DNA of 63,887 bases, the filler included, from Caldilineae bacterium (GTDB taxonomy: Bacteria > Chloroflexota > Anaerolineae > DTLA01): NCBI GenBank assembly GCA_037446815.1. It is 7 parts of 7 records of this genome, joined end to end, with 100 filler letters (N's around TTAATTAATTAA, not from the genome) between each part and the next. Parts side by side here need not be neighbours in the genome. Positions count along the whole stretch, not along the records: positions 1 to 10,297 come from JBBIHX010000103.1; positions 10,398 to 20,586 come from JBBIHX010000104.1; positions 20,687 to 30,822 come from JBBIHX010000105.1; positions 30,923 to 41,033 come from JBBIHX010000106.1; positions 41,134 to 51,234 come from JBBIHX010000107.1; positions 51,335 to 61,412 come from JBBIHX010000108.1; positions 61,513 to 63,887 come from JBBIHX010000254.1. One strand, written 5' to 3'. A program made the translations under genes and the position numbers. The notes below the pieces were generated by a model. That model saw nothing but the letters and a program-made list of their open reading frames with translations. It searched no databases and was not told where the DNA came from. Below, piece after piece: positions 2,815-63,872 of the stretch. Position 1 is the stretch's first letter. Each line of letters begins with the position of its first letter.

Positions 2815-2965
2815 GAGTCGGTTCCGTCTTGTGTTGGTCTGCCCCGCGCACCGCCTCCCCGCTCTGTCATGCTGAGCCGAAGGCGAAGCATCTCGGTCAG
2901 CGAGATTCTTCGCGGCTTCGCCGCTCAGAATGACAGTAGATGCCAACAGACTTTGAAACCGACTC
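2815..2965 (+). mobile_element. MITE copy, type-B core
   Basis: TIRs GAGTCGGTTCC / GAAACCGACTC; 8-bp TSD CCGTTACA at 2807-2814 and 2966-2973. Confidence 0.9.
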
Positions 2966-2973
2966 CCGTTACA

Positions 2974-3123
2974 GAGTCGGTTTCATCTTGTGTTGGTGAA
3001 CCGTAGGCGCACTCTCCTCGTGTGTCATTGCGAGCGAAGCGAAGCAATCCCACGCCCCGGAGATTGCTTCGGGCACTGCGTGCCCTCGCAATGACAGCCA
3101 CCAACAGACTTTGGAACCGACTC
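2974..3123 (+). mobile_element. MITE copy, type-A core, in tandem with the previous copy
   Basis: TIRs GAGTCGGTTTCA / TGGAACCGACTC; TSD CCGTTACA at 2966-2973 and 3124-3131. Confidence 0.92.
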
Positions 3124-3187
3124 CCGTTACACGCCCATTCGCGCCGACGGGGGTTCGCGCATATAATGGGTCGTAACGGAGGGGAAC

Positions 3188-4366
3188 ATGTCTCGTGTCA
3201 ACCGCGTGGTTCTCATCATCCTGGACAGCGTGGGCGCGGGGGCACTGCCCGACGCCGACCGCTACGGCGACGCCGGTAGCAACACGCTGGCCAACACAGC
3301 CCGCGCCGTGGGCGGGTTGCGCCTGCCCAACATGGGCCGCATGGGCCTGGGTCGCATCACCGACATCCTCGGCGTGCCGCCCGACCCGGCCCCCATCGGC
3401 GCATTCGGACGCATGGCCGAAGCGTCGGCGGGCAAGGATACGACCATCGGCCACTGGGAACTGATGGGCATCCACTCGCCCCGGCCCCTGCCCACGTATC
3501 CCAACGGCTTCCCGCCCGACCTGATGCGCCGCTTTGAGCAGGCCATCGGGCGCGAGACCCTGGGCAACTATCCGGCGTCGGGCACGGAGATCATCAAGGA
3601 GTTGGGCGAGGAGCACATGCGCACGGGCAAGCCCATTGTGTACACGTCGGCCGACAGCGTGTTCCAAATCGCGGCCCACGAGGATGTCATCCCGATTGAG
3701 GAGTTGTACGCCATGTGCCGAACGGCGCGCGCCCTGCTCACCGGCGAGCACAACGTGGGGCGGGTCATCGCGCGGCCTTTCGTGGGCGAACCCGGCCGTT
3801 TCACCCGCACCGAGCGGCGCAGGGACTTTTCGGCGCCGCCGCCCGCGCCGACGGTGCTGGATCACCTAACCCAGGCGGGCATTCCGGTCATCGCCGTGGG
3901 CAAGATAGAGGACATCTTCGCGGGGCAGGGCATCACCGAGGCCGTCCACACGAAGGACAACGCCGACGGCATGGATCAGACGCTGGGGTACATGGAGCGG
4001 GTGGAGCGCGGCCTCATCTTCGCGAACCTGGTGGACTTTGACATGGTGTACGGGCATCGCAACAACGCCGAGGGATACGCCCGCGCGCTGGAGGCAGTGG
4101 ACGCGCGGCTGCCCGAGTTCCAGGCCCGGCTGCGGTCGGGCGACGTGCTCATCCTCACCGCCGACCACGGGTGCGACCCCACGACGCCGAGCACGGACCA
4201 CTCGCGTGAGTACGTGCCGCTTCTCATCGTGGGGCCGCACGTTCGCGCCGGCGTTGACCTGGGCACGCGGGCGACGTTCGCCGATGTGGGCGCGACGATC
4301 GCGGATTGGTTCGGCGTGCGCGGGACGGGGTTCGGGACGAGTTTCGCCCGCCTGCTGGTGGAATAG
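3188..4366 (+). CDS. deoB: phosphopentomutase
   Basis: [55 protein letters not shown] motifs. Confidence 0.97.
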
Positions 4367-4381
4367 GCCGGCGACGCGCGC

Positions 4382-4418
4382 AAAAGACCTCCGAGGACGC
4401 TCGCGCCCCGGAGGTCTC
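4382..4418. terminator. hairpin between convergent deoB and pfk; probable terminator, T-tract on the minus strand
   Basis: AAAAGACCTCCG...CGGAGGTCT inverted repeat. Confidence 0.55.
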
Positions 4419-4419
4419 T

Positions 4420-4471
4420 GCTGATTGCTGATGGCTGATTGCTGTCTGCTGTCTGCTGTCCGCTGACCGCT
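4420..4471. repeat. heptamer tandem repeat (GCTGWYN-type)
   Basis: gctgatt gctgatg gctgatt gctgtct gctgtct gctgtcc gctgacc. Confidence 0.7.
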
Positions 4472-5500
4472 CTAGAAGAATACTTTGGCCAGTTCGTACA
4501 GTTCCAGGTCTATTTTCTTGTTGGACGCGACGGCGTGCTCCAGTTCCACGGGCACGATCTTGTTGCCCTTGAGGGCGGCCATGTAGCCGAATCGCCCCTC
4601 GCGGATGAGGTCCACGGCGAAGACGCCCAGGCGCGTCGCCAGGACGCGGTCAAAGACGGACGGGCTTCCACCGCGCTGCAAGTGTCCCAGCACCACCGTG
4701 CGCGCCTCAAACCCGATGCGCTTCTCAATCTCCTTGGCGACGCGCTCGCCGAGGCTGCGCTTGTCCAGCCGCACATGGCCAAAGGCATCGCGCTCGCCCA
4801 GGTCCTCCGGCTCGGGCAGGTCAGTAATCTTGGCGCCCTCGGCCACGACGACGATGGCGAAGTTCTTGCCCGCGTCGCGGCGATTCTTCAGGTGCGCGCA
4901 GATGGCGTCCATGTTGGTGGGCGACTCGGGCACGGCGATGAAGTCGGCGCCACCGGCCAACCCGCCGACGACGGCCACCCACCCGGCATCGCGCCCCATG
5001 ACCTCCACGACGATGACCCGATGATGGGCTGTGGCGGTGGTGTGTAGTTTGTCCAGCGCATCTGCGACGGTGGTCGTGGCCGTGTCAAAACCGATGCAGT
5101 AGTCGGTCTCGGCCACGTCGTTGTCCATGGTCTTGGGCACGCCCACCGCGGGCAGGCCCTTGGCGGCCAGCGCTGCCGCGACGCTGAGCGTGTCGTCGCC
5201 GCCGATGGCCACAAGGCCGTCCAACTGCATGGCCTTGAAGTTGGCGAAGACCCTCTCCATCATCTTGGGGTCTTTCAGCGGGTTGGTGCGGGATGTGCCC
5301 AAAATGGTGCCGCCGACGTGCAGGATGCCCGAAACGGACTTGGGCGTGAGCGGCTCGTAGATGCCCTCCACCATGCCCTGCCAGCCGTTGCGGATGCCCA
5401 CGACTTCCCAACCGTACTGGAACGCGCGGCGCGCAACCGCGCGGATTGCCGCGTTGAGGCCCGGAACGTCGCCTCCTCCTGTCAAAACTCCGATTCGCAT
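4472..5500 (-). CDS. pfkA: 6-phosphofructokinase family, with PPi-type signature residues
   Basis: [39 protein letters not shown] motifs. Confidence 0.95.
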   Translation of the reverse strand: MRIGVLTGGGDVPGLNAAIRAVARRAFQYGWEVVGIRNGWQGMVEGIYEPLTPKSVSGILHVGGTILGTSRTNPLKDPKMMERVFANFKAMQLDGLVAIGGDDTLSVAAALAAKGLPAVGVPKTMDNDVAETDYCIGFDTATTTVADALDKLHTTATAHHRVIVVEVMGRDAGWVAVVGGLAGGADFIAVPESPTNMDAICAHLKNRRDAGKNFAIVVVAEGAKITDLPEPEDLGERDAFGHVRLDKRSLGERVAKEIEKRIGFEARTVVLGHLQRGGSPSVFDRVLATRLGVFAVDLIREGRFGYMAALKGNKIVPVELEHAVASNKKIDLELYELAKVFF

Positions 5501-5558
5501 ACGAATTCCTCCGAAATCATGCCCGCTCTGAACTGATGCTCCGCGGGCGTGTGCTCTC

Positions 5559-6482
5559 TTACTCTTCCGCGCCGCCCAGGTGGGCGCTGCGGAACTGCTT
5601 GGGCGCGTCCACGAAGGCGCCGCTCGGGGTGATGCGACCCGCCGACTTGAACAGGCGAATCTTCTCGCGGACGCGCTCCTTGACGCGCTCCCTGGCCACG
5701 CTCAACGCATGACGCGGGTCTACTGAGTCGGGGTACTTGGCTAACCCTTCCTTCAAGCCCTCGGTGAACGCTTCGTTCAGGTACGTCGCCACGTTGATCT
5801 TGGCGATGCCGTGCTGGATGGCCTCTTCTATGCTGGACTCGCGCACGCCCGATGAGCCGTGCAGCACCAACGGGATGCGGGTCTTCTCATAGACGGCCTT
5901 GATGCGGGCGATGTCCAGTTCGGCCTCCTGGCTGCGCATGGCGTGCACCGAGCCGCAGGCCACCGCCAGTGAGTCCGCGCCCGTCAGGCGGATGAACTCG
6001 GCGGCCTGGTCGGGGTCGGTCATCAGCGCTTCCACCTGCTCCTTGGTCAGGTGCTCGTCGGACTGCGCCACGCGGCCCAGTTCGGCCTCCACGGGAATGC
6101 CCACGATGTGGGCGATGTCGCAAATCTTCTTCGTGATGGCGACGTTCTCCTCAAACGGGAGTTTGGAGCCATCAAACATGAGCGACGTGAACCCGGCGTG
6201 GAGGCAGCGCACGTTCTGCTCGTAGTCGGTGCCGTGATCCAGGTGCAGCACCACCGGCACGTCCACCTGGCTGGCGGCGATCTTCACCAGGCCGGCGGCG
6301 TAGGCCAGCCCCGCGTAGCGGATGGCCCCCTGGCTCACCTGCAGGATGACGGGCGCGCGCTCCTCTTGCGCGGCCTCCACGATGGCCTGGACCTGCTCCA
6401 TGCAGTTCGCGTTGAATGCGCCGACGGCGAAATGGTCTTGCACTGCGCGCTTCAACAATTCTTTGCTCGTTACCAATGGCAT
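5559..6482 (-). CDS. fba: class II fructose-bisphosphate aldolase
   Basis: GAFN, HLDHG, MFDGS, EAELG, GSVH, LVLHGSSG, KINV motifs. Confidence 0.93.
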   Translation of the reverse strand: MPLVTSKELLKRAVQDHFAVGAFNANCMEQVQAIVEAAQEERAPVILQVSQGAIRYAGLAYAAGLVKIAASQVDVPVVLHLDHGTDYEQNVRCLHAGFTSLMFDGSKLPFEENVAITKKICDIAHIVGIPVEAELGRVAQSDEHLTKEQVEALMTDPDQAAEFIRLTGADSLAVACGSVHAMRSQEAELDIARIKAVYEKTRIPLVLHGSSGVRESSIEEAIQHGIAKINVATYLNEAFTEGLKEGLAKYPDSVDPRHALSVARERVKERVREKIRLFKSAGRITPSGAFVDAPKQFRSAHLGGAEE

Positions 6483-6539
6483 GGCTATCCTCTCCTCATA
6501 AAGCGATCGGTGCGCGGTTTGCTAGCCCGCGCTTGGGAT

Positions 6540-7397
6540 TCAGGGCCTTGTCCGGCGGAACCGCAGCACCCAGCGGTGGTGCGAGGGGCCTTCAACATCC
6601 GGGCACGGCTCGTCCGTGGCCCGAAGCCCCCGCACCACCTCGCTCCCTTCGGTTCCCACCGTTACGGCATACTCTACGCCGCTGTCCATGGCGAAATCGG
6701 CATAGCCCGGGTCCACCTCCGGCTTGAGGCCGGTGTAGAACGCATCGGAGCCGCCGCTCCACGTAACCTCAATGCGGACCCCCGGCACGCCGCGCTCGTC
6801 CTCATCCAGCACAAACACGGCGATGAGGTCGGGGCCCGCGCCTGCTGCGCACGTGTACTCCTTCGCCATCAGGCGGAACACCTGCGCGCTCGGCCTCTCC
6901 GTTGGCGTCGCAGTTGGCTCCGGCGACGGCGTGGGCGTCGGCGTGGGCTGCGGCGTGGGCGTCGGCGTTGGCAACGGCGTGGGCGACGGCGTTGGCGTTG
7001 GGGCCGGCGTGGCGATGTACACGAGAAGCCGCGCCGTGATTCCCCCAAGGCGCTCGGCCAGCCGCGCCATGGCCCGTATGTGCTGAAGGCTCGCGCCCTC
7101 GTCCAGGCGAGTCTCGGCCACCTGCGCCACGAATCCGCCTGGGTCATCTATCCCCAGCAGGTTCAGTCGCGCCCGTGCCGCGTCCAAATCGCCCGTCAGC
7201 GCGTACCCGTCGGCGACCAAATCGGCCCACAGCGCTTTGCGCTCGGGCATCAGATCCGAAGGGTCGGTCTCGGTGTACTGCACGGGCCACACGACCCACG
7301 CCATGAGCAGCCCTGCTGCCAGCCCAAGGACAAGGCCCAGCGTGGCCCACAATCCGACCCTTGCGCGCCGCGGCGCCTGCACCGATACGGGCCTCAT
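6540..7397 (-). CDS. membrane-anchored hypothetical protein (TM, WPVQY helical domain, PT linker, C-terminal beta-sandwich)
   Basis: ATG 7397 overlaps the upstream stop (ATGA); hydrophobic segment and Pro/Thr linker. Confidence 0.75.
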   Translation of the reverse strand: MRPVSVQAPRRARVGLWATLGLVLGLAAGLLMAWVVWPVQYTETDPSDLMPERKALWADLVADGYALTGDLDAARARLNLLGIDDPGGFVAQVAETRLDEGASLQHIRAMARLAERLGGITARLLVYIATPAPTPTPSPTPLPTPTPTPQPTPTPTPSPEPTATPTERPSAQVFRLMAKEYTCAAGAGPDLIAVFVLDEDERGVPGVRIEVTWSGGSDAFYTGLKPEVDPGYADFAMDSGVEYAVTVGTEGSEVVRGLRATDEPCPDVEGPSHHRWVLRFRRTRP

Positions 7398-7729
7398 GGC
7401 TGTTTCAGCGCCTCCGTAAGTTTCAGCACGCGCAGGGCGCCGCGGGCATCGCCTCGCGCTTCCAGCGCCGCAACGGCCTGGGTCAGCGTCTGCTCTGCTT
7501 GCGGGCCCAGGAGGGCGACGGCGGCGCGGGCCTGGGCCAGGTCGCCGGTCAACTCCCACTGCTCGCTGACCATCTGCACGTATAGGACCTTGTGCTCAGC
7601 GCGGAGGTCCGGCAGGTCTGTGTCGTAGTACTGCACCGGCCACAGGACCCAGCCGATGACCCCGCCGAGGGCCAGCCCGATGACCAGCCCGACGAGGGCG
7701 GCCAGAACCCGCTTCAGTGCCACAGGCAT
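7394..7729 (-). CDS. small membrane-anchored hypothetical protein, paralog of the downstream gene's N-domain
   Basis: TM helix followed by WPVQYYDTDLPDL...LTGDLAQARA; SD GGAGG upstream. Confidence 0.8.
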   Translation of the reverse strand: MPVALKRVLAALVGLVIGLALGGVIGWVLWPVQYYDTDLPDLRAEHKVLYVQMVSEQWELTGDLAQARAAVALLGPQAEQTLTQAVAALEARGDARGALRVLKLTEALKQP

Positions 7730-7855
7730 GGGAATCGTTCCCTCCGTTGGGCGCGCCGCAGGCCCAAAAAGAGCGGGGGACTCTCCCCCGCTGCCACGGT
7801 GCGCGTCCGACGCCGCTTGTCAAACCTCGCGCGACTCTGCTATAATAGTCCCGTC

Positions 7856-7943
7856 TGGTGCCGAAGGTGGGAGTCGAACCCACATGAGGAGTGACCCTCA
7901 ACGGTTTTTGAGACCGCCGCGTCTGCCATTCCGCCACTTCGGC
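7856..7943 (-). tRNA. tRNA-Leu(CAA)
   Basis: GCCGAAG acceptor stem, GGCAGA D-loop, anticodon loop CT-CAA-AA, long variable arm, GTTCGACTC T-loop, encoded CCA. Confidence 0.97.
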
Positions 7944-7975
7944 GCGGGGCAGGTGAACCTGCCGGATTTGCCCGA

Positions 7976-8004
7976 AGTATAGCGCATCGGAGAACTTTCG
8001 TCAA
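7976..8004 (-). promoter_or_regulatory. sigma70 promoter of tRNA-Leu
   Basis: Minus strand TTGACG, 17 bp, TATACT. Confidence 0.75.
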
Positions 8005-8018
8005 GTTGCTGAGCGGAG

Positions 8019-8169
8019 GAGTCGGTTCCAAAGTCTGTTGGTATCTACTGTCATTCTGAGCGGCGAAGCCGCGAAGAATCTCGCTGACCGAGATGCTTCG
8101 CCTTCGGCTCAGCATGACAGAGCGGGGAGGCGGTGCGCTGTACAGACCAACACAAGATGAAACCGACTC
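8019..8169 (-). mobile_element. MITE copy, type-B core
   Basis: TIRs GAGTCGGTTCCA / TGAAACCGACTC; only a partial TSD (GCGGAG); a further TIR-like GATTCGGTTC at 8179. Confidence 0.88.
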
Positions 8170-8239
8170 GGCGGAGGGGATTCGGTTCAGCATGACACGT
8201 AGCAGGGCGGGGCGGCACGGGGCGCGTTAGGAGGTAGAG

Positions 8240-8452
8240 ATGAGGACCTTCACAGCGGTTGTTGAGAAGTGTCCCGATACGGGTCTGTATGTCGGCTATG
8301 TGCCGGGCTTTCCGGGTGCACACACACAAGCGGCAACGCTTGACGAACTGCAAAGAAACTTGCAGGAAGTCATAGAGATGCTGCTTGAGGACGGTGAGCC
8401 ATCCCTTGAAGCCGAGTTCGTTGGCACCCAGACGGTGGTGATTGGCGGATGA
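8240..8452 (+). CDS. hicB: HicB-family antitoxin (short form)
   Basis: FTAVVE..YVGYVPGFPGAHTQAATLDEL..NLQEVIEMLLE pattern; strong SD AGGAGGT. Confidence 0.9.
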   Translation: MRTFTAVVEKCPDTGLYVGYVPGFPGAHTQAATLDELQRNLQEVIEMLLEDGEPSLEAEFVGTQTVVIGG

Positions 8453-8834
8453 TGGCGAAATATCCCGTCCTCAAGCCGCGAGAAGTGGCAGCGATCTTGA
8501 GTCGGTTTCATCTTATGTTGGTGAACCGTAGGCGCACTCTCTTCGTGTGTCATTGCGAGCGAAGCGAAGCAATCCCACGCGCTGGGGATTGCTTCGGGCA
8601 CTGCGTGCCCTCGCAATGACAAATACCAACAGACGTTGGAACCGAATCGCGATCTTGGAGAACCTCGGCTTTGTGGAGGTGCGGCGGAGAGGCTCCCATA
8701 GGCAATACCGGCATCCGGATGGACGGTGTACAACGGTGCCTTTTCACACGGGGCGAGATATTTCGCCGATTCTGCTGCGGCAGATAGCCAAGGACATTGG
8801 CCTCACCGTAGAAGAGTTGCTGAAGCACAGATGA
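8452..8834 (+). pseudogene. hicA: HicA-family mRNA interferase toxin, interrupted by a MITE
   Basis: Removing 8499-8656 restores a 74-aa ORF MAKYPVLKPREVAAILENLGFVEVRRRGSHRQYRHPDGRCTTVPFH...LLRQIAKDIGL with the GSH catalytic motif. Confidence 0.93.
8499..8648 (+). mobile_element. MITE copy, type A, inside hicA
   Basis: Perfect 8-bp TSD GCGATCTT at 8491-8498 and 8649-8656. Confidence 0.95.
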
Positions 8835-8939
8835 TGGGCTAGTTATCCCATCGGGAGCGCATCTTACGCGTGCCTCCGCCGACGTTCCCTTGCCCGGCGC
8901 AGGGCCGGGGCGGGGGCGGCCCTTGCAGTTTGGAGCACT

Positions 8940-9536
8940 ATGGACGAGCAACGGCTCATCGCGCAGGCTCAACGGGGAGACCTGCACGCCTTCAATCAAC
9001 TGGTGCTCGCGTACCAGTCCACGCTATATAACGTCGCCTACCGCATCCTGGGCGATGCGGATGCGGCTGCCGACGCCACGCAGGATGCCTTCGTATCGGC
9101 CTACAAGGCCATTGCCCGCTTCCGCGGTGGGTCGTTTAAGGCCTGGCTTCTGCGCATCGTTACCAACGCCTGCTACGACCAACTGCGGGTGAGACAGCGC
9201 CGCCCGACCGACTCGCTGGATGATATGCTTGTTGAGCCGGAGCACGACGCCAACCTTCGGGATGATTCCGAGAGCCCGGAGGAGTTCGTGCTTCGGCAGG
9301 AATTGGGGGCGGCCATCCAGCGGGGGTTGAGCACCTTGCCCCCCGACCAGCGAATCACCCTCGTGCTTTCCGACATTGAGGGATTGAGTTACGACGAGAT
9401 CGCCGAAGTAACCCATGTGTCGCTCGGCACGGTCAAGTCCCGGCTCAGTCGCGCGCGCTCCAAATTGCGCGACTACCTGCTCCACAACGGGGAACTTTTG
9501 CCCGCCGCCTATCGTCTTCAAGGCGGTATAGGCTAG
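8940..9536 (+). CDS. ECF sigma-70 factor (SigW/SigE-like)
   Basis: DATQDAF, FKAWLLRIVTNACYD, GLSYDEIAEV..VSLGTVKSRLSRAR. Confidence 0.95.
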   Translation: MDEQRLIAQAQRGDLHAFNQLVLAYQSTLYNVAYRILGDADAAADATQDAFVSAYKAIARFRGGSFKAWLLRIVTNACYDQLRVRQRRPTDSLDDMLVEPEHDANLRDDSESPEEFVLRQELGAAIQRGLSTLPPDQRITLVLSDIEGLSYDEIAEVTHVSLGTVKSRLSRARSKLRDYLLHNGELLPAAYRLQGGIG

Positions 9537-9548
9537 AGGAGCCGGTTC

Positions 9549-10297
9549 ATGGCATTCTGGAACAGGGATAAGCACAGGAGAATCAAAGACAATCTGTCGG
9601 CGTACCTGGACGGTCGGCTGAACCCGACCCAGGCCGCCGAGGTTGAGGCGCATCTGGCGTCTTGCGCCGAATGCGCGTGGGAGAAGCAGACGCTGGAGCA
9701 GACGCGGCATTTGCTGCACTTGACGCCACGGGCGGCCGTTCCGCGCTCGTTTGTCCTCAGCGCGGCGCAGGTGGAGGCGCCGGCCCGTAAGGGCGCGTTC
9801 GCCCCTGCGCCGCTGATGGCGCTGCGCACGGCGACGGCGGCTGTAGGCATCCTGCTGGCGGTCGTCCTGGCCGGAGACCTGTGGCTGCGTCCTCTTGCGC
9901 CCGCGTCCGCGCCGATGGTGAGCGCGCCGCCGTCTCCCGCGGGCGAGATGTACTCGTTCGGCGCGACGCCCGAGCCGACGCTTACCGAAGAGCCGGCGAT
10001 GAAACTGGCGGCCCAGCCGCAGCCCGAGACGCCCGCGCCCGAGCCGCTGGTGGATGGCACGGCGGCAGCGGCCCTGCCCCCGGAAGGTGGCCGCGGGGGC
10101 GGCGCGCCTGAGGCCACGCCGGAGGCCCCTCCAGAGGTGGCTGCCCGGGATATGTCGGTGCACGAGCGTGGCGAGGCCCGCGCGCCCTTCTGGGGCGAGG
10201 TGTGGGTATGGCGCGCGGCGGAAGGGGCGCTCGGGGCCATGTTCGTCGCACTTCTCATTATCACCGTAACCGGTTGGCGGCGCGTGTCCCGCATGGG
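9549..10297 (+). CDS. zf-HC2 anti-sigma factor, membrane-bound; 3' end truncated by contig end
   Basis: LSAYLDG...HLASCAEC zinc motif, TM segments, directly downstream of the ECF sigma. Confidence 0.88.
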
Positions 10298-10397
10298 NNN
10301 NNNNNNNNNNNNNNNNNNNNNNNNNNNNNNNNNNNNNNNNNTTAATTAATTAANNNNNNNNNNNNNNNNNNNNNNNNNNNNNNNNNNNNNNNNNNNN
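10298..10397. other. artificial contig linker N44-TTAATTAATTAA-N44 (also 20587-20686, 30823-30922, 41034-41133, 51235-51334, 61413-61512)
   Basis: Identical six-frame-stop linker; the intervening contigs decrease monotonically in length. Confidence 0.97.
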
Positions 10398-10585
10398 CGC
10401 CCGTCGGGACAGCGCGGGGGTGAGGGCGGCGCTCCCTCGCCCGTCGGGACAGGGCGGGGGTGAGGGCGGCGCTCCCTCGCCCGCCGGGTGAGGGCGGGGG
10501 TGAGGGCGGCGCTCTCCCTCGCCCGCCGGGAGAGGGCCGGGGTGAGGGGCGAGATTCCTCACTGCTCCGCGGCTCAGAATGACAG
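10398..10585. repeat. tandem REP-like units (CCCTCGCCC..GGG.GAGGG..GGGGTGAGGG) plus a type-B half-site
   Basis: Four imperfect ~40-bp units at the contig start. Confidence 0.75.
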
Positions 10586-10661
10586 TGTCCGGGGACTCCT
10601 TCGGGCGCCCCGCCCCTCGCCATGACGATCGCCAACGGATTTCGGAACGAATGGACACCCC

Positions 10662-10811
10662 GAGTCGGTTCCAAAGTTTGTTGGTGGCTGTCATTGCGAG
10701 GGCACGCAGTGCCCGAAGCAATCTCCGGGGCGTGGGATTGCTTCGCTTCGCTCGCAATGACACACGAGGAGAGTGCGCCTACGGTTCACCAACACAAGAT
10801 GAAACCGACTC
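10662..10811 (-). mobile_element. MITE copy, type A, no TSD visible
   Basis: TIRs GAGTCGGTTCCA / TGAAACCGACTC; flanks GACACCCC and AGTGCTGG differ. Confidence 0.9.
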
Positions 10812-10922
10812 AGTGCTGGCCCCCTCTTGCGTTTCCACCCATCCTTGTGCATAATACGCCCACGATGGACATCCCACAGCGCAGGCAAGCCCCGCCGCTT
10901 GCCTGGGAAAGGAGCATCCGCC

Positions 10923-13625: not shown

Positions 13626-13774
13626 GATTCGGTTCCAAAGTCTGTTGGTACTTGTCATTGCGAGGGCGCGGAGCGCCCGAAGCAATCTCTGGGGCGTGAG
13701 GTTGCTTCGCTTCGCTCACAACGACATACGGGGAGAGTGTCCATGCGTTTCACCAACACAAGATGGAACGAGTC
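13626..13774 (-). mobile_element. MITE copy, type A, with a 16-bp flanking duplication
   Basis: CGCACCCCCTCCGAAT at 13610-13625 and 13775-13790. Confidence 0.9.
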
Positions 13775-13922
13775 CGCACCCCCTCCGAATTGACAGGTAG
13801 CCTGGCGGGTGTACAATGTGTTAGCCCTACGCACCGCTGAGCGCCGCTACGTCCATCATCCTCAGCAAGGCCAGGACGAGCCTGGTAGGAGCACCGTCTA
13901 ACCCATCCGAGGAGGTACAACT

Positions 13923-16674: not shown

Positions 16675-16678
16675 TCGC

Positions 16679-18014: not shown

Positions 18015-18164
18015 GATTCGGTTCCAAAGTTTGTTGGTGGCTGTCATTGCGAGGGCGCGGAGCGCCCGAAGCAATCTCCGGAGCGTGGGATTGCTTCGCT
18101 TCGCTCGCAATGACACACGGGTAGTGTGCGCCTGTGGTTCACCAACACAAGATGAAACCGAATC
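18015..18164 (-). mobile_element. MITE copy, type A
   Basis: Perfect TSD TCCGTTGG at 18007-18014 and 18165-18172. Confidence 0.93.
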
Positions 18165-20582: not shown

Positions 20583-20686
20583 AGAANNNNNNNNNNNNNN
20601 NNNNNNNNNNNNNNNNNNNNNNNNNNNNNNTTAATTAATTAANNNNNNNNNNNNNNNNNNNNNNNNNNNNNNNNNNNNNNNNNNNN

Positions 20687-28225: not shown

Positions 28226-28375
28226 GATTCGGTTCTAAAGCCTGTTGGTGGCTGTCATTGCGAGGGCGCGGAGCGCCCGAAGCAATCTCCCGGGCGCGGG
28301 TTTGCTTCGCTTCGCTCGCAATGACACACGAGGAGAGTGCGCCTACGGTTCACCAACACAAGATGGAACCGAATC
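28226..28375 (-). mobile_element. MITE copy, type A
   Basis: TSD 7/8 match: CAGACCCA and CAGGCCCA. Confidence 0.9.
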
Positions 28376-29912: not shown

Positions 29913-30062
29913 GACTCGGCTCCATCTTGTGTTGGTGAAACGCATGGGCACTCTCCCCGTGTGTCGTTGCGAGCGAAGCGAAGCAACCTCACGCCCCAGA
30001 GATTGCTTCGGGCGCTCCGCGCCCTCGCAATGACAAATACCAACAGGCTTTGGAACCGAATC
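29913..30062 (+). mobile_element. MITE copy, type A, followed by a second TIR remnant (30071-30084)
   Basis: Perfect TSD GCCGGTGG at 29905-29912 and 30063-30070. Confidence 0.92.
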
Positions 30063-30922: not shown

Positions 30923-30974
30923 GGCGCTCCGCGCCCTCGCAATGACAAATACCAACAGACTTTGGAACCGAATC
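30923..30974 (+). mobile_element. MITE right end, truncated by contig start
   Basis: CCCTCGCAATGAC...CCAACAGACTTTGGAACCGAATC. Confidence 0.85.
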
Positions 30975-43285: not shown

Positions 43286-43422
43286 CCGCAAACCTCCCGC
43301 AAGCGATGCGAACGCTGCACCGTAACCGTAGGCCACCGACGCCGTGCCGGATGGGGTCGGTTGTCCCTACCGGCGCATTATAACACAAGACACCAGCGGG
43401 TCAAGCATGTATTCCATCGCCG

Positions 43423-43572
43423 CAGTCGGTTTCATCTTATGTTGGTGAACCGCATGTACACTCTCCTCGTGTGTCAGTGCGAGCGAAGCGACGCAATCTC
43501 ACGCCTCGGAGATTGCTTCGGGCGCTACGCGCCCTCGCAATGACAAGTACCAACAGACTTTGGAACCGAATC
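43423..43572 (+). mobile_element. MITE copy, type A, between divergent promoters
   Basis: Perfect TSD CATCGCCG at 43415-43422 and 43573-43580. Confidence 0.92.
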
Positions 43573-43655
43573 CATCGCCGCGGTTCTTTGCCCTGGACTC
43601 GCTCCCCGTGTTATAATCCGCCCGCAGAGCAGGAACGCCTGCCAGGGGGAGAACC

Positions 43656-50652: not shown

Positions 50653-51568
50653 TCCCTGCCCTCACCATGGGGCAGTATAGCACAGCGCCCGAGCGCGGGC
50701 AAGGCGTGCGGCCAGGCTCACGCACGGCGCGCGTTGTCCCTCCATCCCGCTGTTATGCTCAGCCGCGGGCGAAGCATCTCGGTCGGCGCAATGCCTCGCG
50801 GCTGGCGCCATTCAGTCTGGGGCGGGGATTGCCGCGGCGTCAACCTCACCCATCCCCACCCAGCCCTCCCCTTCCCTCTCCGCGAGCGGAGAGGGAAGGG
50901 GAGGGTATGGGAGGGGTTAGGTGAGGTCAAGAACCCGTCGCTGCTCGTCATTATTTGCAGACCTCAACGGTCTCCAAAGCCCTTGAGGTCTGGTCGCGCC
51001 CGCACCAGGGGGCTTGGCCCCGCGCGGCCGCGCTCTATCGCCTGACGGGAGAGGGTTGGGGTGAGGGCATTCACGTGCGACGCACTTTCGGAAGTGCGTC
51101 GCACGTTGTCGCCCGCACGCTCGCAACGCCGGATGTCAGCGGGAGAGGGTCTGGGTGAGGGCGTTCACATGCGACGCGCCTCCGAGGTGCACCGCACGTA
51201 GCCACCTTCGTGCCCATTCGCGGATGCGGCCCCCNNNNNNNNNNNNNNNNNNNNNNNNNNNNNNNNNNNNNNNNNNNNTTAATTAATTAANNNNNNNNNN
51301 NNNNNNNNNNNNNNNNNNNNNNNNNNNNNNNNNNACGCCCTCACCCCAGCCCTCTCCCAGCGGGCGAGGGAGCGACGCCCTCACCCCCGGCCTTCAGCCT
51401 CGGGGAACGACGGGGCGAGGTCAGCCGCAATCCGTGCTATCCGTGGATACAACCCTGGAGATGCTTCGCCTTCGGCTCAGCATGACAGGAGAGCGACAAC
51501 GTGCGATGCACTTTCGGAGGTGTGTCGCACGTTGCTCCCCGCCCCGAACTCCGTATCAAGGGGTTTTT

Positions 51569-51719
51569 GAGTCGGTTCCAAACTGTGTTGGTGAACCGTA
51601 GGCGTGCTCTCCTCGTGTGTCATTGCGAGCGAAGCGAAGCAATCGCACGCCCCGGAGGTTGCTTCGGGCGCTCCGCGCCCTCGCAATGACAAAACACCAA
51701 CAGAATTTGGAACCGAGTC
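51569..51719 (+). mobile_element. MITE copy, type A, upstream of rpsA
   Basis: TIRs GAGTCGGTTCCA / TGGAACCGAGTC; degenerate TSD GGGTTTTT and GGCTTTTG. Confidence 0.88.
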
Positions 51720-51804
51720 GGCTTTTGCAAGGTTTGCGTTTTCGCGCAACATACGCTATAATAGCAACAAGAGCAGTAAATCTCAACGGTAAGGGGAAGC
51801 TCGG

Positions 51805-57174: not shown

Positions 57175-57605
57175 NNNNNNNNNNNNNNNNNNNNNNNNNN
57201 NNNNNNNNNNNNNNNNNNNNNNNNNNNNNNNNNNNNNNNNNNNNNNNNNNNNNNNNNNNNNNNNNNNNNNNNNNCCGCGATGACGTTGACTTTTCGCGCA
57301 ACCTGTGTTATCATTATGTAGATATTCTTTTCGTCGGTTGTTCACATACATAATCGGCGCTGCGTGGCCCGCAGTGGCAAGACATTTTTCTATCATCCCT
57401 GGCACTTATTGGTTGTTCGTTTTCCGAAATCGTTTCAGCATCGCCTGCGGCAAGAAGGATCGGACTACGAAGAGTGCACGGGATGTGCGCTCTTCTTTTT
57501 TCGCGGCAGGTCGGCCGCAATTCTGTTCGGATAGGAGGTGAGCGAAGTCAATGTTTCGGTAGGGGGCGTCAACCCGCGAATGACAAGGCTTGTAAGGAGA
57601 GGGTC

Positions 57606-60396: not shown

Positions 60397-60504
60397 TGCC
60401 CACGGTCGGAGGTGTCGGTGGGGATTCACCGCGGAGAACCAGAATGGATTCTCTGCATTCTCCCTGTCTCTGCGGTGATACTCCTTATCTGCGAGGGGGA
60501 TTGA

Positions 60505-61263
60505 ATGCCGGGCTTTGAGGTGCTGTACGGACGGAACGCCGTCCTGGAGACCCTGCGGGCCAACCGGCGGCGGTTCTACCGCCTGCTGGTGGCGCAGAAC
60601 GTGGCGGCCGGCGGCGCGGTGGGCCACATCCTCGCCGAGGCGCGCGCCCGCAACGTCCCCCATGTGGCGGTGGAGCGCGACGCGCTGGACAAACTGGTGG
60701 GCAAGGACGCGGGCCACCATCAGGGGGTGGCGCTGGAGACGAGCGGCTACCCCTATGTCCCGTGGCAGCAGGCGCTGCGGGCGTGCCAGCAGGCAGGGGA
60801 CAAGGCGCTCTTCCTTGTCCTGGATTGCCTGCAAGACCCGCAGAACCTGGGCAGCCTTCTGCGGACGGCAGAAGCGGTCGGCGTGCACGGCGTCGTAATC
60901 CCCAAACGCCGCGCGGTGGAGATCACCCCCGCCGTGGTGAACGCTTCGGCGGGCGCGACGGAGCACCTGCGCGTGGACATCGTGAGCAACCTGGCGCAAA
61001 CGCTGGAGCAGATGAAGCGGGAGAACGTGTGGGCCGTGGGGCTGGAAGCGACGCCCACAGCGCTGCTGTACACCGAGGCCGACCTGAACCGCTCCCTGGC
61101 GCTTGTCGTGGGGAGCGAGGGGAGCGGCATCAGCCGCCTTCTGCGCGACCGGTGCGACTTCCTGATTCGCCTGCCGATGCGGGGGAAGGTGGGATCGCTC
61201 AATGCTGCCGTGGCGGGGTCGGTGGCGCTCTACGAGATCGCCCGCCAGCGGCAGGGCGGATGA
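60505..61263 (+). CDS. rlmB: 23S rRNA Gm2251 methyltransferase (SpoU family)
   Basis: HQGV, QDPQNLGSLLR, GSEGSG, SLNAAVA. Confidence 0.93.
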   Translation: MPGFEVLYGRNAVLETLRANRRRFYRLLVAQNVAAGGAVGHILAEARARNVPHVAVERDALDKLVGKDAGHHQGVALETSGYPYVPWQQALRACQQAGDKALFLVLDCLQDPQNLGSLLRTAEAVGVHGVVIPKRRAVEITPAVVNASAGATEHLRVDIVSNLAQTLEQMKRENVWAVGLEATPTALLYTEADLNRSLALVVGSEGSGISRLLRDRCDFLIRLPMRGKVGSLNAAVAGSVALYEIARQRQGG

Positions 61264-61512
61264 CGCGGTTGCCGCGCGGGGCTAAAGCCGCCGTTCCCTC
61301 GCCCGCCGGGAGAGGGTCAGGGTGAGGGCCGCGCGGGTGGGACAGGCCTCACCCCCTCAATCCCCCTCTCCGCAAGCGGAGAGGGGGAAGCCGAAGGCGG
61401 AGGTGAGGTAGCNNNNNNNNNNNNNNNNNNNNNNNNNNNNNNNNNNNNNNNNNNNNTTAATTAATTAANNNNNNNNNNNNNNNNNNNNNNNNNNNNNNNN
61501 NNNNNNNNNNNN

Positions 61513-63536
61513 CGCTCGCAGTGAATCCGCTTGTCGGTCCAGCCGGGCAGCGACGGGTGGTGCGCGACCTTGTCCAGCGCGCCCCACGTCAGCGCAGAAC
61601 CGCCCTCCAAGCAGCCGTTCGCCGCGGCCTCCCAGTCGCTGAGGCGGGGCGCGCCGCTGGTGTTGTTGGACTGGACGAGGGTGCCCACGAGGTCCAGCCC
61701 CTCAATCAGGTAGTTGATGTGCGCGCCCGCCACGTGGTTGCCGCGCAATGTCAGCGTCTGGCCCGCGGCCACGTGCGCCCACTCCTGGCACTGCCCGCCC
61801 TCGGGGCACAGCGTTCCGGCGGGCGGCGCGGGTTCCACTGTGCAAGAGTTCGGGTTGCCCACCGCGCGCGGGTGCGCGCTGCCCACGCACCCCGCACCCC
61901 ACATGTGCGTGCCCAGGTTGATGCCCGCATGGATGCCGCCGCAGGTGGTGCTGGAGACGCTCGTTACCGTGTTGGAGATGACCTGCACGCCCGACACGTC
62001 GCCGAAGATCCAGGGGTGGATGGCGATGCCCGCGAACGCGCCGTAGTTGCCGGCCGTGGACTGGATGGTGTTGCTGGAGATGATCGTGTTCCTGCCGCCG
62101 AAGAAGACGATGCCCACGTCGGACGCGTTGATGATGGTGTTGCCGGTGATCCGATGGTTGGGGCCGGTGAGGGTCATGCCGTCGGACCAGCCGCCCCGGG
62201 GCTCGTCGTTGTCGGTGAGCGCGCAGGCGGTTCGGTGAACATGGTCGCCCGCGATGTCAATCGTGGTGTTGCGGATGGTGCTGGCCGCCGCGCCCATGCC
62301 CAGCGCCGTGCCGCATTCGGTGTTGGAGATGCGCACATTGTCCACCAGCAGGCCGGTGCTCCACGCGCCGGGGTGCGCCGCATAGTTCTGGTCGCTCCAG
62401 TCCATGCCGCCGTTCATGGCCAGCGAGCCAGGGAGGCACCAGGGATCGCCCGGGCTGGAGCATTCGGGCAGCCACGAGCCCCAGTTGTCGCCGATGCCGT
62501 TGGACACGTCATCGGGGCCGAAGCAGACGCGCGCAGCCCGGTTGCCGTCAATGTCCAGGTGGCTGATGGTGATGTTGTCAATGTCGCCGGGGTTGAGAAT
62601 CCGCGAGCGGGCCTGCAACTGCACCACAAACCCCTTGAGACTCGCGGTGGCTTTGAGCAGCGCGTGGTTGGACGTGTTCGTGGATCGGAAGGTGAGGTTG
62701 CTCTTGGCCGATGTCGCCACCAGGAAGATGGTCTTGTCAATCTGGTACCCCTGGTAGCCGGGGCTGCCCACGCCCGACGTGAACGTAACGGTATCGCCGG
62801 GGCACGTGGAGTCAATGGCTGCCTGGATGGCGTCGGAGTCGGGGGCCGTGTCCCACGGGTTCGCGCCCCACGAATCCACGTTGATCGTCGCCGCGCCCGA
62901 CGGCTCCAGGCCCACCACCACGCTGCGGAAGATTTCGGCGCCATCGCCGCGGTCATCCAGGCGGAAGTCCGCCCCGTTGTCGCGGTTGCCGAAGTAGGCG
63001 TCGCAGATGAGGAACGAAGCCGTGCGCCACTGGTGGCTGTTGGTCTTCTGGACGACGGCGGTGCTGAGGAATTGGCCATTCCCAAACGGCCCGCCGGAGA
63101 CACCGTCGTACTGAATCACCCAGGTGTCCGTTCCATTGTCGTAGTACTCCACAAGGATGCGCACGCGCGTGGTGGGCGTGCCGTTGAAAATGACGGCGTC
63201 GGACGCGCGGAGTTGCAGGAAACTGTCGGGGATCGTGTTGCCATCGGGCGAGGGTAGCGCTACGCCGTTGCCGGTCTTGCGCGCGGTTACACCCGACAGA
63301 TTCACCGCCTGCGTGTCCACGTCGCCGCCGGTGTCCATCCACAGCCCGTTGGAGATATTGGTGGACCCCAGCACGATTGACAGGCCGCGAGCGTTCTTGG
63401 AAACGACCGGCAGGCGGAGGCGCTTGGGCGCGGGCGCCGATTGAGGGTCGGGCGGCGCCCCAACAGAGCCTTGAACGAAGAGCAAGGGCGACAATGCGAT
63501 GCCGAGGGCCAGCAACAGGGAAAAACCGCGCTTCAT
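61513..63536 (-). CDS. secreted right-handed beta-helix protein with a CBM-like N-domain; C-terminus truncated
   Basis: Signal peptide, D..AIQAAID, parallel beta-helix repeats, many Cys; SD GGAGGT. Confidence 0.8.
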
Positions 63537-63776
63537 GGTACACCTCCCAAAGAGCACCTGAATCCAGGAGCAGCCTATGGCCGCAACGCCAGCACGAGCG
63601 CCACGCGCCCGGAAATCCGCAACGGCGCCCCTGACGAGCGCACCTCCGCCCGCGGGAAGGCGCCAGGCAGTATCGCGGCACGCTGGAGACGAGCGGTCTG
63701 ATAGCGGTGAGCCTACTGAGGATTGCGATGGCAAACAGAGCGTGCTTCACGCCTTCGCTGTGGCGCTTTGTAGGGC

Positions 63777-63872
63777 ATTCTACCATGAGCGCACCGGGAA
63801 GTCAAAGGGTGTCATGATTGGATTCGGTTCCAAAGCGTCGCGATTTGACATTGCGGCATGTGCACCTATAAT
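63777..63872. promoter_or_regulatory. divergent sigma70 promoters flanking a solo MITE TIR (63821-63835)
   Basis: Minus strand TTGACT-17-TAGAAT (63805-63777); plus strand TTGACA-16-TATAAT (63845-63872). Confidence 0.65.

Follow-up and report, generated by a model that had tools for sequence, protein, structure and literature searches.

The results support the existence of a MITE family, that is, a non-autonomous transposon family of about 150 bp, in an uncultured member of the Anaerolineae; its copies are inserted in either orientation upstream of sigma70-type -35 boxes, at a constant distance of 15 (14-16) nt. The enzyme that mobilized the MITE in trans was probably the transposase encoded by a ~1.52-kb IS found in other Anaerolineae, and it would cut at a fixed distance upstream of such promoters; we put this reading at roughly 0.8.

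The MITE Family in the Window and in the Genome

The stretch of DNA analyzed (63,887 nucleotides; the window) consists of seven contigs (C103-C108 and C254) of a 3.19-Mb Anaerolineae MAG (completeness 93.6%), separated by N spacers. An earlier, sequence-only reading had described the copies as lying on unlinked contigs, which is correct given that the seven contigs are merely joined by N's. All 11 full copies listed in that reading were present at the reported starts, each being ~150 bp long with termini GA(G/T)TCGGTTYCA, and the truncated copy ending at 30974 and the solo terminal inverted repeat (TIR) at 63821 were found again (Table 1). A partial copy at 10590-10650 is additional to that list. 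The spacing between element end and -35 box was likewise reproduced at ten window loci (14-15 nt), the copy at 2974 having a weak -35. Two subfamilies occur in the window, the main one, with the copy at 2974 as reference, and a second with a different interior hairpin (2815 and 8019). The element is built of two ~25-bp TIRs flanking a captured hairpin repeat and folds into a strong hairpin (-74.9 kcal/mol, z -6.7).

A profile built from the 11 window copies was employed in an nhmmer search of the MAG, a check that the sequence-only reading had proposed, and over the whole genome the pattern proved far stronger than within the window. The 696 raw matches were reduced to 525 non-redundant loci, including 233 near-full copies, and MITE loci make up 1.9% of the genome. 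N-free 70-nt flanks were available for 210 near-full copies, 190 of which have both termini with at most 2 mismatches.

Table 1. MITE copies in the window and promoter motifs in their flanks; distances are from the element end to the -35 hexamer.
Feature	Position	Strand	TSD and remarks	Flanking promoter motifs
MITE, subfamily with different interior hairpin	2815..2965	+	First of tandem pair; TSD CCGTTACA	
MITE, main subfamily, reference copy	2974..3123	+	8-bp CCGTTACA in common with 2815 copy	Right: weak -35 3139-3144; -10 TATAAT 3162-3167 (outward position 39)
MITE, second subfamily	8019..8169	-	Near-exact TSD	Left (minus strand): TTGACG 7999-8004, 14 nt; TATACT 7976-7981
MITE	8499..8648	+	Exact TSD GCGATCTT	No promoter motif in either flank
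Partial MITE, profile positions 85-147	10590..10650	+	Adjoins 10662 copy	
MITE	10662..10811	-	No TSD	Right: TTGCGT 10827-10832, 15 nt; CATAAT 10850-10855
MITE, one-base deletion in one TIR	13626..13774	-	16-nt flank repeat in place of simple 8-bp TSD	Right: TTGACA 13790-13795, 15 nt
MITE	18015..18164	-	Exact TSD TCCGTTGG	No promoter motif in either flank
MITE	28226..28375	-	Near-exact TSD	Left (minus strand): TTGACA 28205-28210, 15 nt
MITE	29913..30062	+	Exact TSD GCCGGTGG; solo TIR after right TSD	Left (minus strand): TTGACA 29892-29897, 15 nt
MITE cut by contig start, profile positions 99-150	30923..30974	+		Right: TTGACA 30990-30995, 15 nt; GATAAT 31013-31018
MITE	43423..43572	+	Exact TSD CATCGCCG; upstream of recO	Right: TTGCCC 43588-43593, 15 nt; TATAAT 43612-43617
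MITE	51569..51719	+	Near-exact TSD; upstream of rpsA	Right: TTGCGT 51734-51739, 14 nt; TATAAT 51757-51762
Solo TIR	63821..63835	+		Left (minus strand): TTGACT 63800-63805, 15 nt; TAGAAT 63777-63782

Distance to the Promoter

At both ends of the element T accounts for 51-58% of bases at outward positions 16 and 17 (background 17.5%), while positions 1-15 carry almost no information and positions 22-38 show no conservation. Among the 318 flanks counted, each without a directly neighboring TIR, TTG starts at position 16 in 91 (binomial p 2e-90; mean 4.3 and maximum 11 over 42 control positions), equally at end A (45/156) and end B (46/162). The peak is one base wide, the adjacent positions 15 and 17 accounting for 7 and 24 flanks, and 33 of the 91 hexamers at position 16 are full consensus TTGACA. 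The earlier claim of a fixed insertion distance thus holds genome-wide and in either orientation, the distance distribution being anything but flat. A promoter-like motif is found on neither side of 29/190 copies, among them those at 8499 and 18015.

Promoters were called only from motifs and crude GC3-based gene calls, and none of the RNA runs was found to contain the window. A TANNNT starting at positions 38-41 follows in 75 of the 91 TTG flanks (control windows 1-2), exactly at position 39, i.e., with a 17-bp spacer, in 52 of them; it is also present in 22/183 flanks lacking TTG at 15-17 (control windows 4-6). A full promoter was detected on one side of 98/190 elements, and registers shifted by 3-5 nt gave 2-5/318 flanks. 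Counting from the promoter side, an element ends exactly 15 nt upstream of 48/241 TTGACA-N16-18-TANNNT sites. Occupancy is a matter not of the -35 alone but also of a -10 box at the correct spacing, since non-coding TTGACA hexamers are occupied at 15 nt in 48/221 cases with a -10 and in 7/281 without (OR 10.9, p 4e-12). The next gene is directed away from the element on 94/119 TTG-bearing sides vs. 82/169 motif-less sides (p 2e-7), and only 3/190 copies lie within gene bodies. The flagged hexamers are probably active promoters; the earlier suggestion that the element marks such promoters draws on sequence motifs and gene orientation and is kept here as a likelihood.

Target-Site Duplications and Empty Sites

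Exact 8-bp target-site duplications (TSDs) were found in the window at the copies at 8499, 18015, 29913 and 43423 and around the tandem pair at 2815 and 2974, where CCGTTACA occurs three times. The 8-bp TSDs described from the window extend to the genome, being exact in 80/190 clean-ended copies and within 2 mismatches in 136/190 (shifted control 3/190). Moreover, exactly 8 nt separate the copies in 11 of 16 neighboring pairs, and two pairs show the identical 8-mer three times.

An empty allele, which the sequence-only reading had proposed to look for, exists at the 8499 locus: a contig of a public run (X1) joins window position 8490 to 8649, which corresponds to precise removal of the element and one TSD. 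The rpsA promoter is conserved in 4/4 congeners, all lacking the MITE. Conservation in four congeners also holds for the recO promoter; 3/4 of them lack the MITE, while the fourth retains a degraded element end, likewise at 15 nt.

The Probable Partner Transposase

As stated earlier for the window, no transposase is present there, and neither the partner type described below nor any Mutator family searched was found in the MAG or in four congeners. Across the class, 26/301 genomes contain the TIR pattern. A search for a transposase bounded by the same TIRs, again suggested by the earlier reading, was unsuccessful in this MAG and successful in other Anaerolineae: MITE-type TIRs bracket ~30 transposase genes in ~25 MAGs at 1520-1545 bp. 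These ISs (~1.52 kb) are intact and encode a transposase of 427-428 aa, and they share the asymmetry of the MITE, the gene-start end corresponding to end B and the other to end A. A perfect 8-bp TSD surrounds 12 of the 21 IS copies with both flanks available, the remaining 9 lacking a clean one. The TIR is present in 12/17 transposase-bearing vs. 14/284 transposase-free genomes (p 5e-11), although such kinship counts are not independent from genome to genome.

Sequence comparisons support the assignment of the partner transposase to a separate, zinc-ribbon lineage that is Mutator/IS256-like. It scores 24-36 bits against PF00872 (cut-off 21) and 38-42 bits against the NCBIfam IS256 model (cut-off 150), and in fold it is best matched by the ISCth4 transposase (6xgx, 6xg8; E 2e-7, TM about 0.45). 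A zinc ribbon lies at its N terminus, and two invariant aspartates are followed by C-x-x-H. No match to the curated ISLre2/TnGBS and ISKra4 models was obtained at E up to 1, and a remote likeness to ISKra4-like proteins was detected (hhalign 93%, E 3e-7). Hence, of the transposase type proposed earlier, the Mutator/IS256-like character stands, while membership in ISLre2/TnGBS or ISKra4 is not borne out by the curated models.

In the intact ISs of other genomes the promoter-distance signal is weaker than in the MITE and in part different. A full promoter in the position-16 register was found in 1/56 flanks and a -10 alone at 38-41 in 14/56, while in 8/56 the register is shifted 10 bp towards the element (TTG at 5-7 plus TANNNT at 27-30); 28/56 are without any promoter motif.

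Proposed Mechanism and Alternatives

According to the reading we favor, the IS transposase, with its N-terminal zinc ribbon and Mutator/IS256-type DDE core, would act in trans on the MITE ends and cut the target with an 8-bp stagger, the site being set by position irrespective of the sequence of these bases. A further 7 bases would separate these 8 bp from the -35 hexamer, so that the element end comes to lie 15 nt upstream of it. The MITE would insert either way round and leave the promoter intact, replacing just the sequence further upstream than about -50. An occupied promoter would be open to a second insertion at the same 8 bp, resulting in tandem copies one TSD apart. The cue may be promoter DNA bound by the RNA polymerase holoenzyme, through sigma region 4 or the alpha C-terminal domains. 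The earlier term "RNA-polymerase/sigma-guided" is retained in this conditional sense, the one observation behind it being that occupancy depends on a spaced -10 plus -35; DNA shape or selection could also give the -10 dependence, which is thus no proof of RNA polymerase contact. Given that neither the MAG nor the four congeners contain the transposase, a helper in this organism is assumed and not seen; presumably it lives or lived there and is missing from the bin.

An unlikely alternative is that the transposase reads the sequence or shape of the -35 and -10 directly, without RNA polymerase or sigma, the distance reflecting protein geometry on DNA. The -35 TTG is indeed the strongest information in the flanks, with 33/91 hexamers at full consensus, and the two registers of the intact ISs, 10 bp apart, could come from a protein reading one helix face. 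However, occupancy drops from 48/221 to 7/281 when the -10, 23 bp further away, is absent, flanks without TTG still show the -10 (22/183 vs. 4-6), and a transposase of only ~48 kDa would need to recognize both hexamers, with 17 bp between them, together with a cut site 7-15 bp upstream that itself lacks sequence preference. Random or roughly intergenic insertion, with purifying selection keeping harmless copies just upstream of promoters, would also leave few copies in gene bodies (3/190), but it cannot yield a one-base-wide peak (91 vs. 7 and 24) and does not account for tandem copies that use one 8-mer repeatedly at a spacing of exactly 8 nt; we regard it as highly improbable.

A mobilizer from the ISLre2/TnGBS or ISKra4 family, with the zinc-ribbon IS merely having similar ends, is very unlikely. 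ISKra4 transposases are common in the class (123/301 genomes at E up to 0.001, 30 above cut-off), the TIRs of some (e.g., L029 and L030) resemble that of the MITE (pattern G.GT..GTTTCA...TTG.GTTG), and known ISKra4-group ISs are described in passages of PMC3942029 as targeting promoters in both orientations. Yet the MITE terminal 12-mer is at the ends of 0/30 ISKra4-like loci (at most 2 mismatches), whereas the ~30 zinc-ribbon IS copies do have it, with the same left-right asymmetry, and NF033572 and NF033529 were not found in this genus. Hardly credible, finally, is the notion that the element brings or creates a promoter, as Correia elements do. MITE copies do lie directly upstream of genes, like Correia elements in the passages available of PMC10969869, but both hexamers are outside the TSD with positions 1-15 and 22-38 unconserved, the promoter is on one side only and at either element end, and the rpsA and recO promoters are present in congeners without the MITE.

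Comparison With Known Systems

Promoter targeting by Mutator-like transposases (TnGBS, ISLre2, ISKra4) is already known. Passages of PMC3942029 report that TnGBS conjugative transposons and ISLre2-family ISs insert before sigmaA promoters, 15-17 bp ahead of the -35 and with a detection peak 16 bp from the IR, and that insertion of ISKra4-group ISs is promoter-directed in both orientations, with near-symmetric IRs (Guerillot et al., 2014). The ISKra4 group (p-MULT 4; ISKra2/4/5/6 and others) shares with the partner a Mutator-superfamily transposase and with the MITE insertion ahead of sigmaA promoters at a constant spacing, promoters on either side and a similar TIR pattern, and it also occurs in Chloroflexi, as far as these passages go. 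In contrast, the partner lacks a match to the ISKra4 model NF033572 and has an N-terminal zinc ribbon, and the window element is a 150-bp non-coding derivative in >230 copies. The TnGBS/ISLre2 group (p-MULT 3), with its peak at 16 bp in the same source, agrees in distance with the MITE, for which 15 nt places the start of the -35 at position 16; it inserts in one orientation, IR-right beside the promoter, while the MITE uses both equally (45 vs. 46). Its hosts are mostly Firmicutes, the MITE host belonging to the Anaerolineae, and the partner matches neither NF033529 nor PF06782. With IS256 (p-MULT 1) the partner shares its best fold match, ISCth4, a PF00872 score over the cut-off and the two invariant aspartates with the C-x-x-H after them, but it falls far below the NCBIfam cut-off (38-42 vs. 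150 bits); moreover, IS256 insertion is reported as random in the passages of PMC3942029, whereas this family is promoter-directed.

Similar to other bacterial MITEs (Correia, RUP, BOX, MITEAba12), the element is short and non-coding, with TIRs, a TSD, many intergenic copies and a strong hairpin, and a transposase would be supplied in trans; Correia elements carry promoters, while the MITE here adjoins host promoters. The available passages of two surveys (PMC10969869, PMC11602168) mention neither a MITE aimed at a promoter distance nor one derived from a Mutator-type IS. What is new is the promoter-targeting MITE, its scale and a further transposase lineage. Since they are nearly always exactly 15 bases ahead of a promoter, the MITE copies serve as natural promoter flags in this genome.

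Structure and census of the MITE family

The MITE found in the window is ~150 bp long, has no transposase coding capacity and carries a hairpin repeat as its interior, with TIRs of the form GAKTCGGTTYCA...TGTTGGTG. The sequence-only reading had listed 11 full copies, a copy cut by a contig end and a solo TIR, and all of them were recovered at the positions it had claimed; it had also described the TIR as GA(G/T)TCGGTTYCA, and the copies do start in this way and end with the complement. The two ends are alike over 12 bases and then diverge, the A end continuing with TCTTGTGTTGGTG and the B end with AAGTCTGTTGGTG. A profile built from the 11 window copies was run with nhmmer against the window's own MAG (G000; 3.19 Mb in 265 contigs, 65% G+C, completeness 93.6%, contamination 2.9%). 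The 696 hits obtained correspond to 525 non-redundant loci, including 233 near-full copies, and the family amounts to 1.9% of the genome. Flanks of 70 nt free of N or contig ends were available for 210 of the near-full copies, 190 of which deviate from the consensus by no more than two mismatches at either terminus, and the counts of TSDs, flanks and gene context in G000 rest on those 190. The 8-bp TSDs, also described from the window, are exact in 80/190 copies and within two mismatches in 136/190, against 3/190 in a shifted control.

At least three subfamilies combine common ends with different interiors. In the main subfamily a long hairpin makes up the interior, and folding of the complete element gives -74.9 kcal/mol (z -6.7 relative to shuffles). 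This interior (profile positions ~50-126) also exists as a stand-alone repeat with matches in relatives, at times in tandem arrays, so that the MITE looks like a pair of IS ends around a captured repeat. A longer subfamily of ~200 bp with the same TIRs and an unrelated interior was observed as well, often in tandem with a 150-bp copy, which results in ~357-bp doubles. A search against Rfam returned nothing but a sub-threshold chance match beside the element. The 111 main-subfamily copies of exactly 150 nt show a median identity of 88% and a maximum of 100%. The reference copy has several near-twins at 99-100% identity, and some of the activity must therefore be recent.

The window consists of seven contigs (C103 to C108 and C254) linked by N runs around the word TTAATTAATTAA, which the between-contig spacers bear; internal 100-N gaps are also present in C106 and C108. 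Our analysis revealed a MITE copy within 200 nt of 184 of the 530 contig ends of G000, and the family can thus be regarded as one of the chief reasons why this bin is fragmented, much of the fragmentation being accounted for by such copies. At two places in the window, MITE copies are adjoined by G+C-rich repeats whose period is 40 nt (with units such as CCCTCGCCCGYCGGGAGAGGGC-GGGGTGAGGG); in public runs the contig depths of these repeats add up to very high values, indicating a second high-copy repeat family. In addition, a gene with nine repeats of ~138-nt period has the pattern of a predicted beta-propeller-type repeat protein.

Coordinates of the MITE copies and associated features (G000, the window's own MAG; G004, one of its congeners)
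Feature	Location	Remarks
MITE, full copies	window 2815, 2974, 8019, 8499, 10662, 13626, 18015, 28226, 29913, 43423, 51569	
MITE, contig-cut copy	window, ending at 30974	
Solo TIR	window 63821	
~200-bp subfamily	G000 C117:7110, C121:412, C172:381, C86:5033, C93:305, C124:8760	
Central hairpin, GTCATTGCGAG...CTCGCAATGAC	window 3023-3099 and interiors of other copies	~77 nt; independent repeat family, without TIRs in 14/41 relatives
Central-hairpin tandem arrays	G004:C22:117467-117790, G004:C8:75291-75696	~80-nt period
40-nt-period repeats	window 2444-2680, 10390-10586	
138-nt-period repeats	window 41522-42858, minus strand	within one gene
Other flank of the recO copy	window 43380-43422, minus strand	TTGACC, 16 nt, TATAAT; 18 nt from the element end
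Matches of the 593-nt contig of run X1	window 8284-8490, 8649-9034	
N runs	window 10298-10397, 20587-20686, 30823-30922, 35162-35261, 37766-37865, 41034-41133, 51235-51334, 57175-57274, 61413-61512	

[quoted passage not shown]

Positions were counted outward from the element end into the flank, a -35 box at position 16 thus leaving a gap of 15 nt. Across the 190 copies, positions 1-15 are near-empty of information at either end, T reaches 51-58% at positions 16 and 17 (background 17.5%), and a second A/T-rich patch occupies positions 39-44. Flanks that are another element end, usually beginning at position 9, were excluded from the TTG counts, leaving 318. TTG starts at position 16 in 45/156 A-end and 46/162 B-end flanks, or 91/318 pooled, whereas 42 control positions averaged 4.3 and never exceeded 11 (binomial p 2e-90); positions 15 and 17 form shoulders with 7 and 24 flanks, respectively. 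The fixed distance and the use of either orientation, both proposed from the loci of the window, thus hold genome-wide. Of the 91 position-16 flanks, 33 read TTGACA, and TANNNT begins at positions 38-41 in 75 (exactly at 39, equal to a 17-bp spacer, in 52), with counts of 1 and 2 in two control windows.

When the 190 elements were classified individually, a complete promoter was found on one side in 98, a -35 only in 19 and a -10 only in 21; a motif in a register closer to the element was the only feature in 11 and a neighbouring element in 12, while 29 showed nothing. Registers shifted by 3-5 nt gave a complete promoter in just 2-5/318 flanks, and the closer register is near-absent from G000, with 1 full case. 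Promoters in this genome were predicted from motifs. TTGACA-N16-18-TANNNT has 241 matches, with an element end up to 33 nt upstream of 59 and exactly 15 nt upstream of 48. Outside gene calls and elements, TTGACA is occupied at 15 nt in 48/221 cases with a spaced -10 versus 7/281 without (odds ratio 10.9, p 4e-12), and the target is therefore the whole promoter rather than the hexamer. According to gene calls that are crude, being drawn from third-position G+C (3031 genes), the next gene points away from the element on 94/119 sides with TTG at 15-17 (median gap ~80 nt) versus 82/169 motif-less sides (p 2e-7), and just 3/190 copies lie inside a gene body. A single genome provides ~100 independent, base-precise insertions beside complete predicted promoters, in both orientations and with an internal control for the need of a -10. 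No RNA runs were listed for window 1-10000. The recO copy has on its other flank a second promoter-like sequence facing in the opposite direction, and this copy may sit between divergent promoters.

Repeated insertion, mobility and age of the promoters

Sixteen pairs of near-full copies lie no more than 40 nt apart, 11 of them exactly 8 nt apart. The same 8-mer is present three times in two pairs, namely the window pair 2815/2974 and one on contig C55, and the middle and right 8-mers are identical in three more. Such 8-nt-spaced tandem pairs are as expected if the 8 bp set by a promoter are hit a second time. Mobility was also assessed in public sequencing runs, empty alleles having been put forward by the sequence-only reading as a check. 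A 593-nt contig of run X1 matches the window unbroken across 8490/8649 and is thus without copy 8499-8648 and has a single GCGATCTT where the window has two, a precise empty site that comes from one contig of depth 6.7 and concerns a copy without an adjacent promoter. Runs X2-X4 cover small shares of the window, and the other listed joints, with sides under 40 letters that lie within repeats, were not used. Contigs and differences are identical between runs X3 and X4 at every point, so that the two probably represent a single data set deposited twice and are non-independent.

With regard to the age of the target promoters, the rpsA promoter (TTGCGT, 17 nt, TATAAT) and its leader are kept in 4/4 congeners at 82-85% identity, while the element is present in 0/4, and the similarity to G000 starts within the last TSD bases. 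The recO promoter (TTGCCC, then TATAAT) is likewise kept in 4/4 congeners, three of which are without the element, and in G004 a decayed element end was found at the same 15-nt distance. Judging from these alignments, the rpsA and recO promoters predate the insertions.

A TIR-sharing IS in other Anaerolineae

The TIR pattern was found in 26/301 genomes sampled from the class, in some of which TIR pairs ~1.52 kb apart surround a single gene of 427-428 codons. Scanning of one genome per species gave 51 loci of this transposase, nearly all in MAGs of Anaerolineae or other Chloroflexota, with ~30 full genes flanked by the MITE TIRs, 1520-1545 bp from end to end. These genes have the B-type end at their start and the A-type end at their 3' side, and the TSD is a perfect 8 bp in 12/21 distinct copies with both flanks. 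The pattern is present in 12/17 genomes carrying the transposase versus 14/284 without it, although the p of 5e-11 (301 genomes) is overstated because the genomes are related. In metagenomes, 1763 transposase clusters were recovered at E <= 1e-5 among 8000 candidates scored, most of them on contigs of 1.4-2 kb and named just 'transposase-like' or 'hypothetical'.

For the flanks of the intact ISs the data are thin: 38 distinct copies, spread over many species, left 56 flanks that could be used. A full promoter in the 16 register was found in 1/56, a -10-like hexamer at 38-41 without TTG at 15-17 in 14/56 (shifted controls 2-3), TTG at 5-7 together with TANNNT at 27-30 in 8/56 (controls 0-1), and no motif in 28/56. 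The eight closer-register flanks display the same promoter geometry 10 bp, or one helical turn, nearer to the element, so that the TTG falls inside the TSD. It appears that the intact ISs partly seek promoters. At the individual IS loci L099-L102, L114-L117 and L064, the adjacent promoter is found in this second insertion register; its TTG, at outward position 6, is part of the TSD, and its -10 is at 28.

The transposase of this IS carries an N-terminal four-cysteine ribbon. D171 (in GxDGLW), D234 (in SDG) and C255-x-x-H258 are invariant in 37 sequences; E293, E311 and E354 are all invariant in the transposase alignment as well, each being a candidate for the catalytic E. A Mutator-like, IS256-related enzyme had been anticipated from the window, an assignment that stands for the superfamily and fails for the named families. 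PF00872 (Transposase_mut) scored 24 and 36 bits, over its cut-off of 21. NF033543 (IS256) reached 38 and 42.5 bits, far under the cut-off of 150, so that IS256 membership failed, and the NCBIfam ISH6 model gave 29-38 bits, far under 240. NF033572 (ISKra4, cut-off 205 bits) and NF033529/PF06782 (ISLre2) had no match among the partner transposases at E up to 1. Comparison by hhalign with eight ISKra4-like proteins of the class resulted in 93% probability (E 3e-7, 278 columns, 15% identity), a likeness at superfamily level only, and comparison with one IS256-like protein gave 90% over 67 columns. The PDB yielded nothing relevant by sequence. The structure model is moderate (mean pLDDT 65.6, catalytic core 77-93), and its closest solved fold is the ISCth4 transposase, which we take to be an IS256-family enzyme (E 2e-7, TM 0.44-0.48, ~400 columns), followed by Hermes. 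The model scores and the fold match thus argue for a Mutator/IS256-superfamily enzyme outside the curated families.

Absence of the presumed helper from the genus

The window had been reported to hold no transposase, and none was found there. A transposase bounded by the same TIRs, suggested as the source of mobility, does exist as the ~1.52-kb IS of other Anaerolineae, but not in G000 or its genus. The zinc-ribbon gene was absent from all five genus genomes in a genome search, the best local tblastn match in G000 having E 0.08. Model searches with PF00872, PF06782 and NF033572 gave no match in G000. The ISLre2-type models (PF06782, NF033529) found none in the genus, a result that says little, since the control genomes were also silent. 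The TIR pattern occurs 561 times in G000, and 27, 25, 9 and 4 times in the four congeners. All TIR pairs of G000 that face inward across 250-8000 bp and show a TSD proved to be tandem doubles and triples only, and the 285 TIRs of G000 outside near-full copies belong to more MITE subfamilies and contig-end fragments, with no coding element. At the 20 solo TIR places examined in congener G001, the high G+C creates many spurious ORFs.

Two IS256-like genes of congeners (L021 on G002:C133 and L022 on G001:C2) were rejected as helpers, being without the MITE TIR and without detectable IRs; they may be decayed or domesticated IS256-family copies. ISKra4-family transposases are present in 123/301 genomes of the class at E <= 0.001, with 30 over the cut-off, and their TIRs (GGGTGCGTTTCATTTGAGTTGA and variants; loci L029, L030, L032 and 27 more) resemble that of the MITE. 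As a source of the TIR these loci were rejected too, the pattern being similar and the ends not the same. Given that the smallest contig kept in G000 is at least 2019 bp, none being shorter, and that the transposase family lies mostly on contigs of 1.4-2 kb, we infer that a helper assembled as a ~1.5-kb contig would have been dropped from the bin, which would also be the reason why helper ISs are missing from bins.

Comparison with known systems and possible mechanism

Fixed-distance promoter targeting is a rare safe-haven integration strategy of unsolved mechanism, so far based on a small number of IS and ICE families, whose insertions in each genome number in the tens. Passages of Guerillot et al. 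(2014; PMC3942029) describe a single orientation for TnGBS and ISLre2 elements (p-MULT 3), whose insertions lie 15-17 bp upstream of the -35 box in sigmaA promoters. They report the same targeting for thirteen ISKra4-group ISs (p-MULT 4), with promoters on both sides, which the authors tie to near-perfect IR symmetry, while IS256 insertion appears random. For the promoter-targeting transposases the paper also gives a sequence signature that includes a conserved Asp and lies between domains N1 and N2. The MITE shares the fixed 15-17-bp spacing of the TnGBS/ISLre2/ISKra4 type, with its peak at 15 nt, and, as far as those passages go, its distance and its use of both orientations match the ISKra4 group. 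However, the partner transposase fails the membership tests of ISKra4, ISLre2 and IS256 alike. No report of a promoter-aimed MITE, or of an Anaerolineae IS of such kind, was found in open-access literature searches, and passages of two MITE surveys (PMC10969869, PMC11602168) include no MITE aimed at promoters. The TIR-sharing IS family may already be named or listed, in the supplementary IS lists of PMC3942029 or in ISfinder. This is the first promoter-aimed MITE that could be found in our literature search; its copy number is very high, and an additional lineage of Mutator-like transposases in Anaerolineae is linked to it.

The 8-bp target is set by position, 7 nt upstream of the -35, and has no sequence preference of its own; insertion depends on both promoter hexamers and not on orientation, and the same site is re-used. 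Probably, a transposase-DNA complex is recruited by the promoter-bound RNA polymerase holoenzyme, a direct reading of the promoter DNA by the transposase being less likely. With recruitment, the cut would fall between about -51 and -44, the region that the alpha C-terminal domains occupy in textbook promoters. Insertion should be nearly neutral because the core promoter is preserved and the upstream DNA alone is replaced, and this near-neutrality would account for the expansion to hundreds of copies.

Recruitment is also part of a broader reading, to which we assign a probability of about 0.4. Promoter-directed integration would then extend beyond ISLre2/TnGBS and ISKra4 to Mutator-like transposases of bacteria more broadly, and might be ancestral among them. 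The zinc-ribbon lineage would read holoenzyme-occupied promoter architecture and no DNA word, docking in two registers one helical turn apart (with the -35 beginning at outward position 6 or 16), with its MITEs filling about one fifth of the consensus promoters of one genome. The compact candidate transposase family makes the targeting mechanism testable. The copies flag predicted promoters, hence operon starts, in an uncultured Anaerolineae lineage, and if this reading is true, MITE copies would represent a ready-made in vivo promoter map for unculturable organisms.
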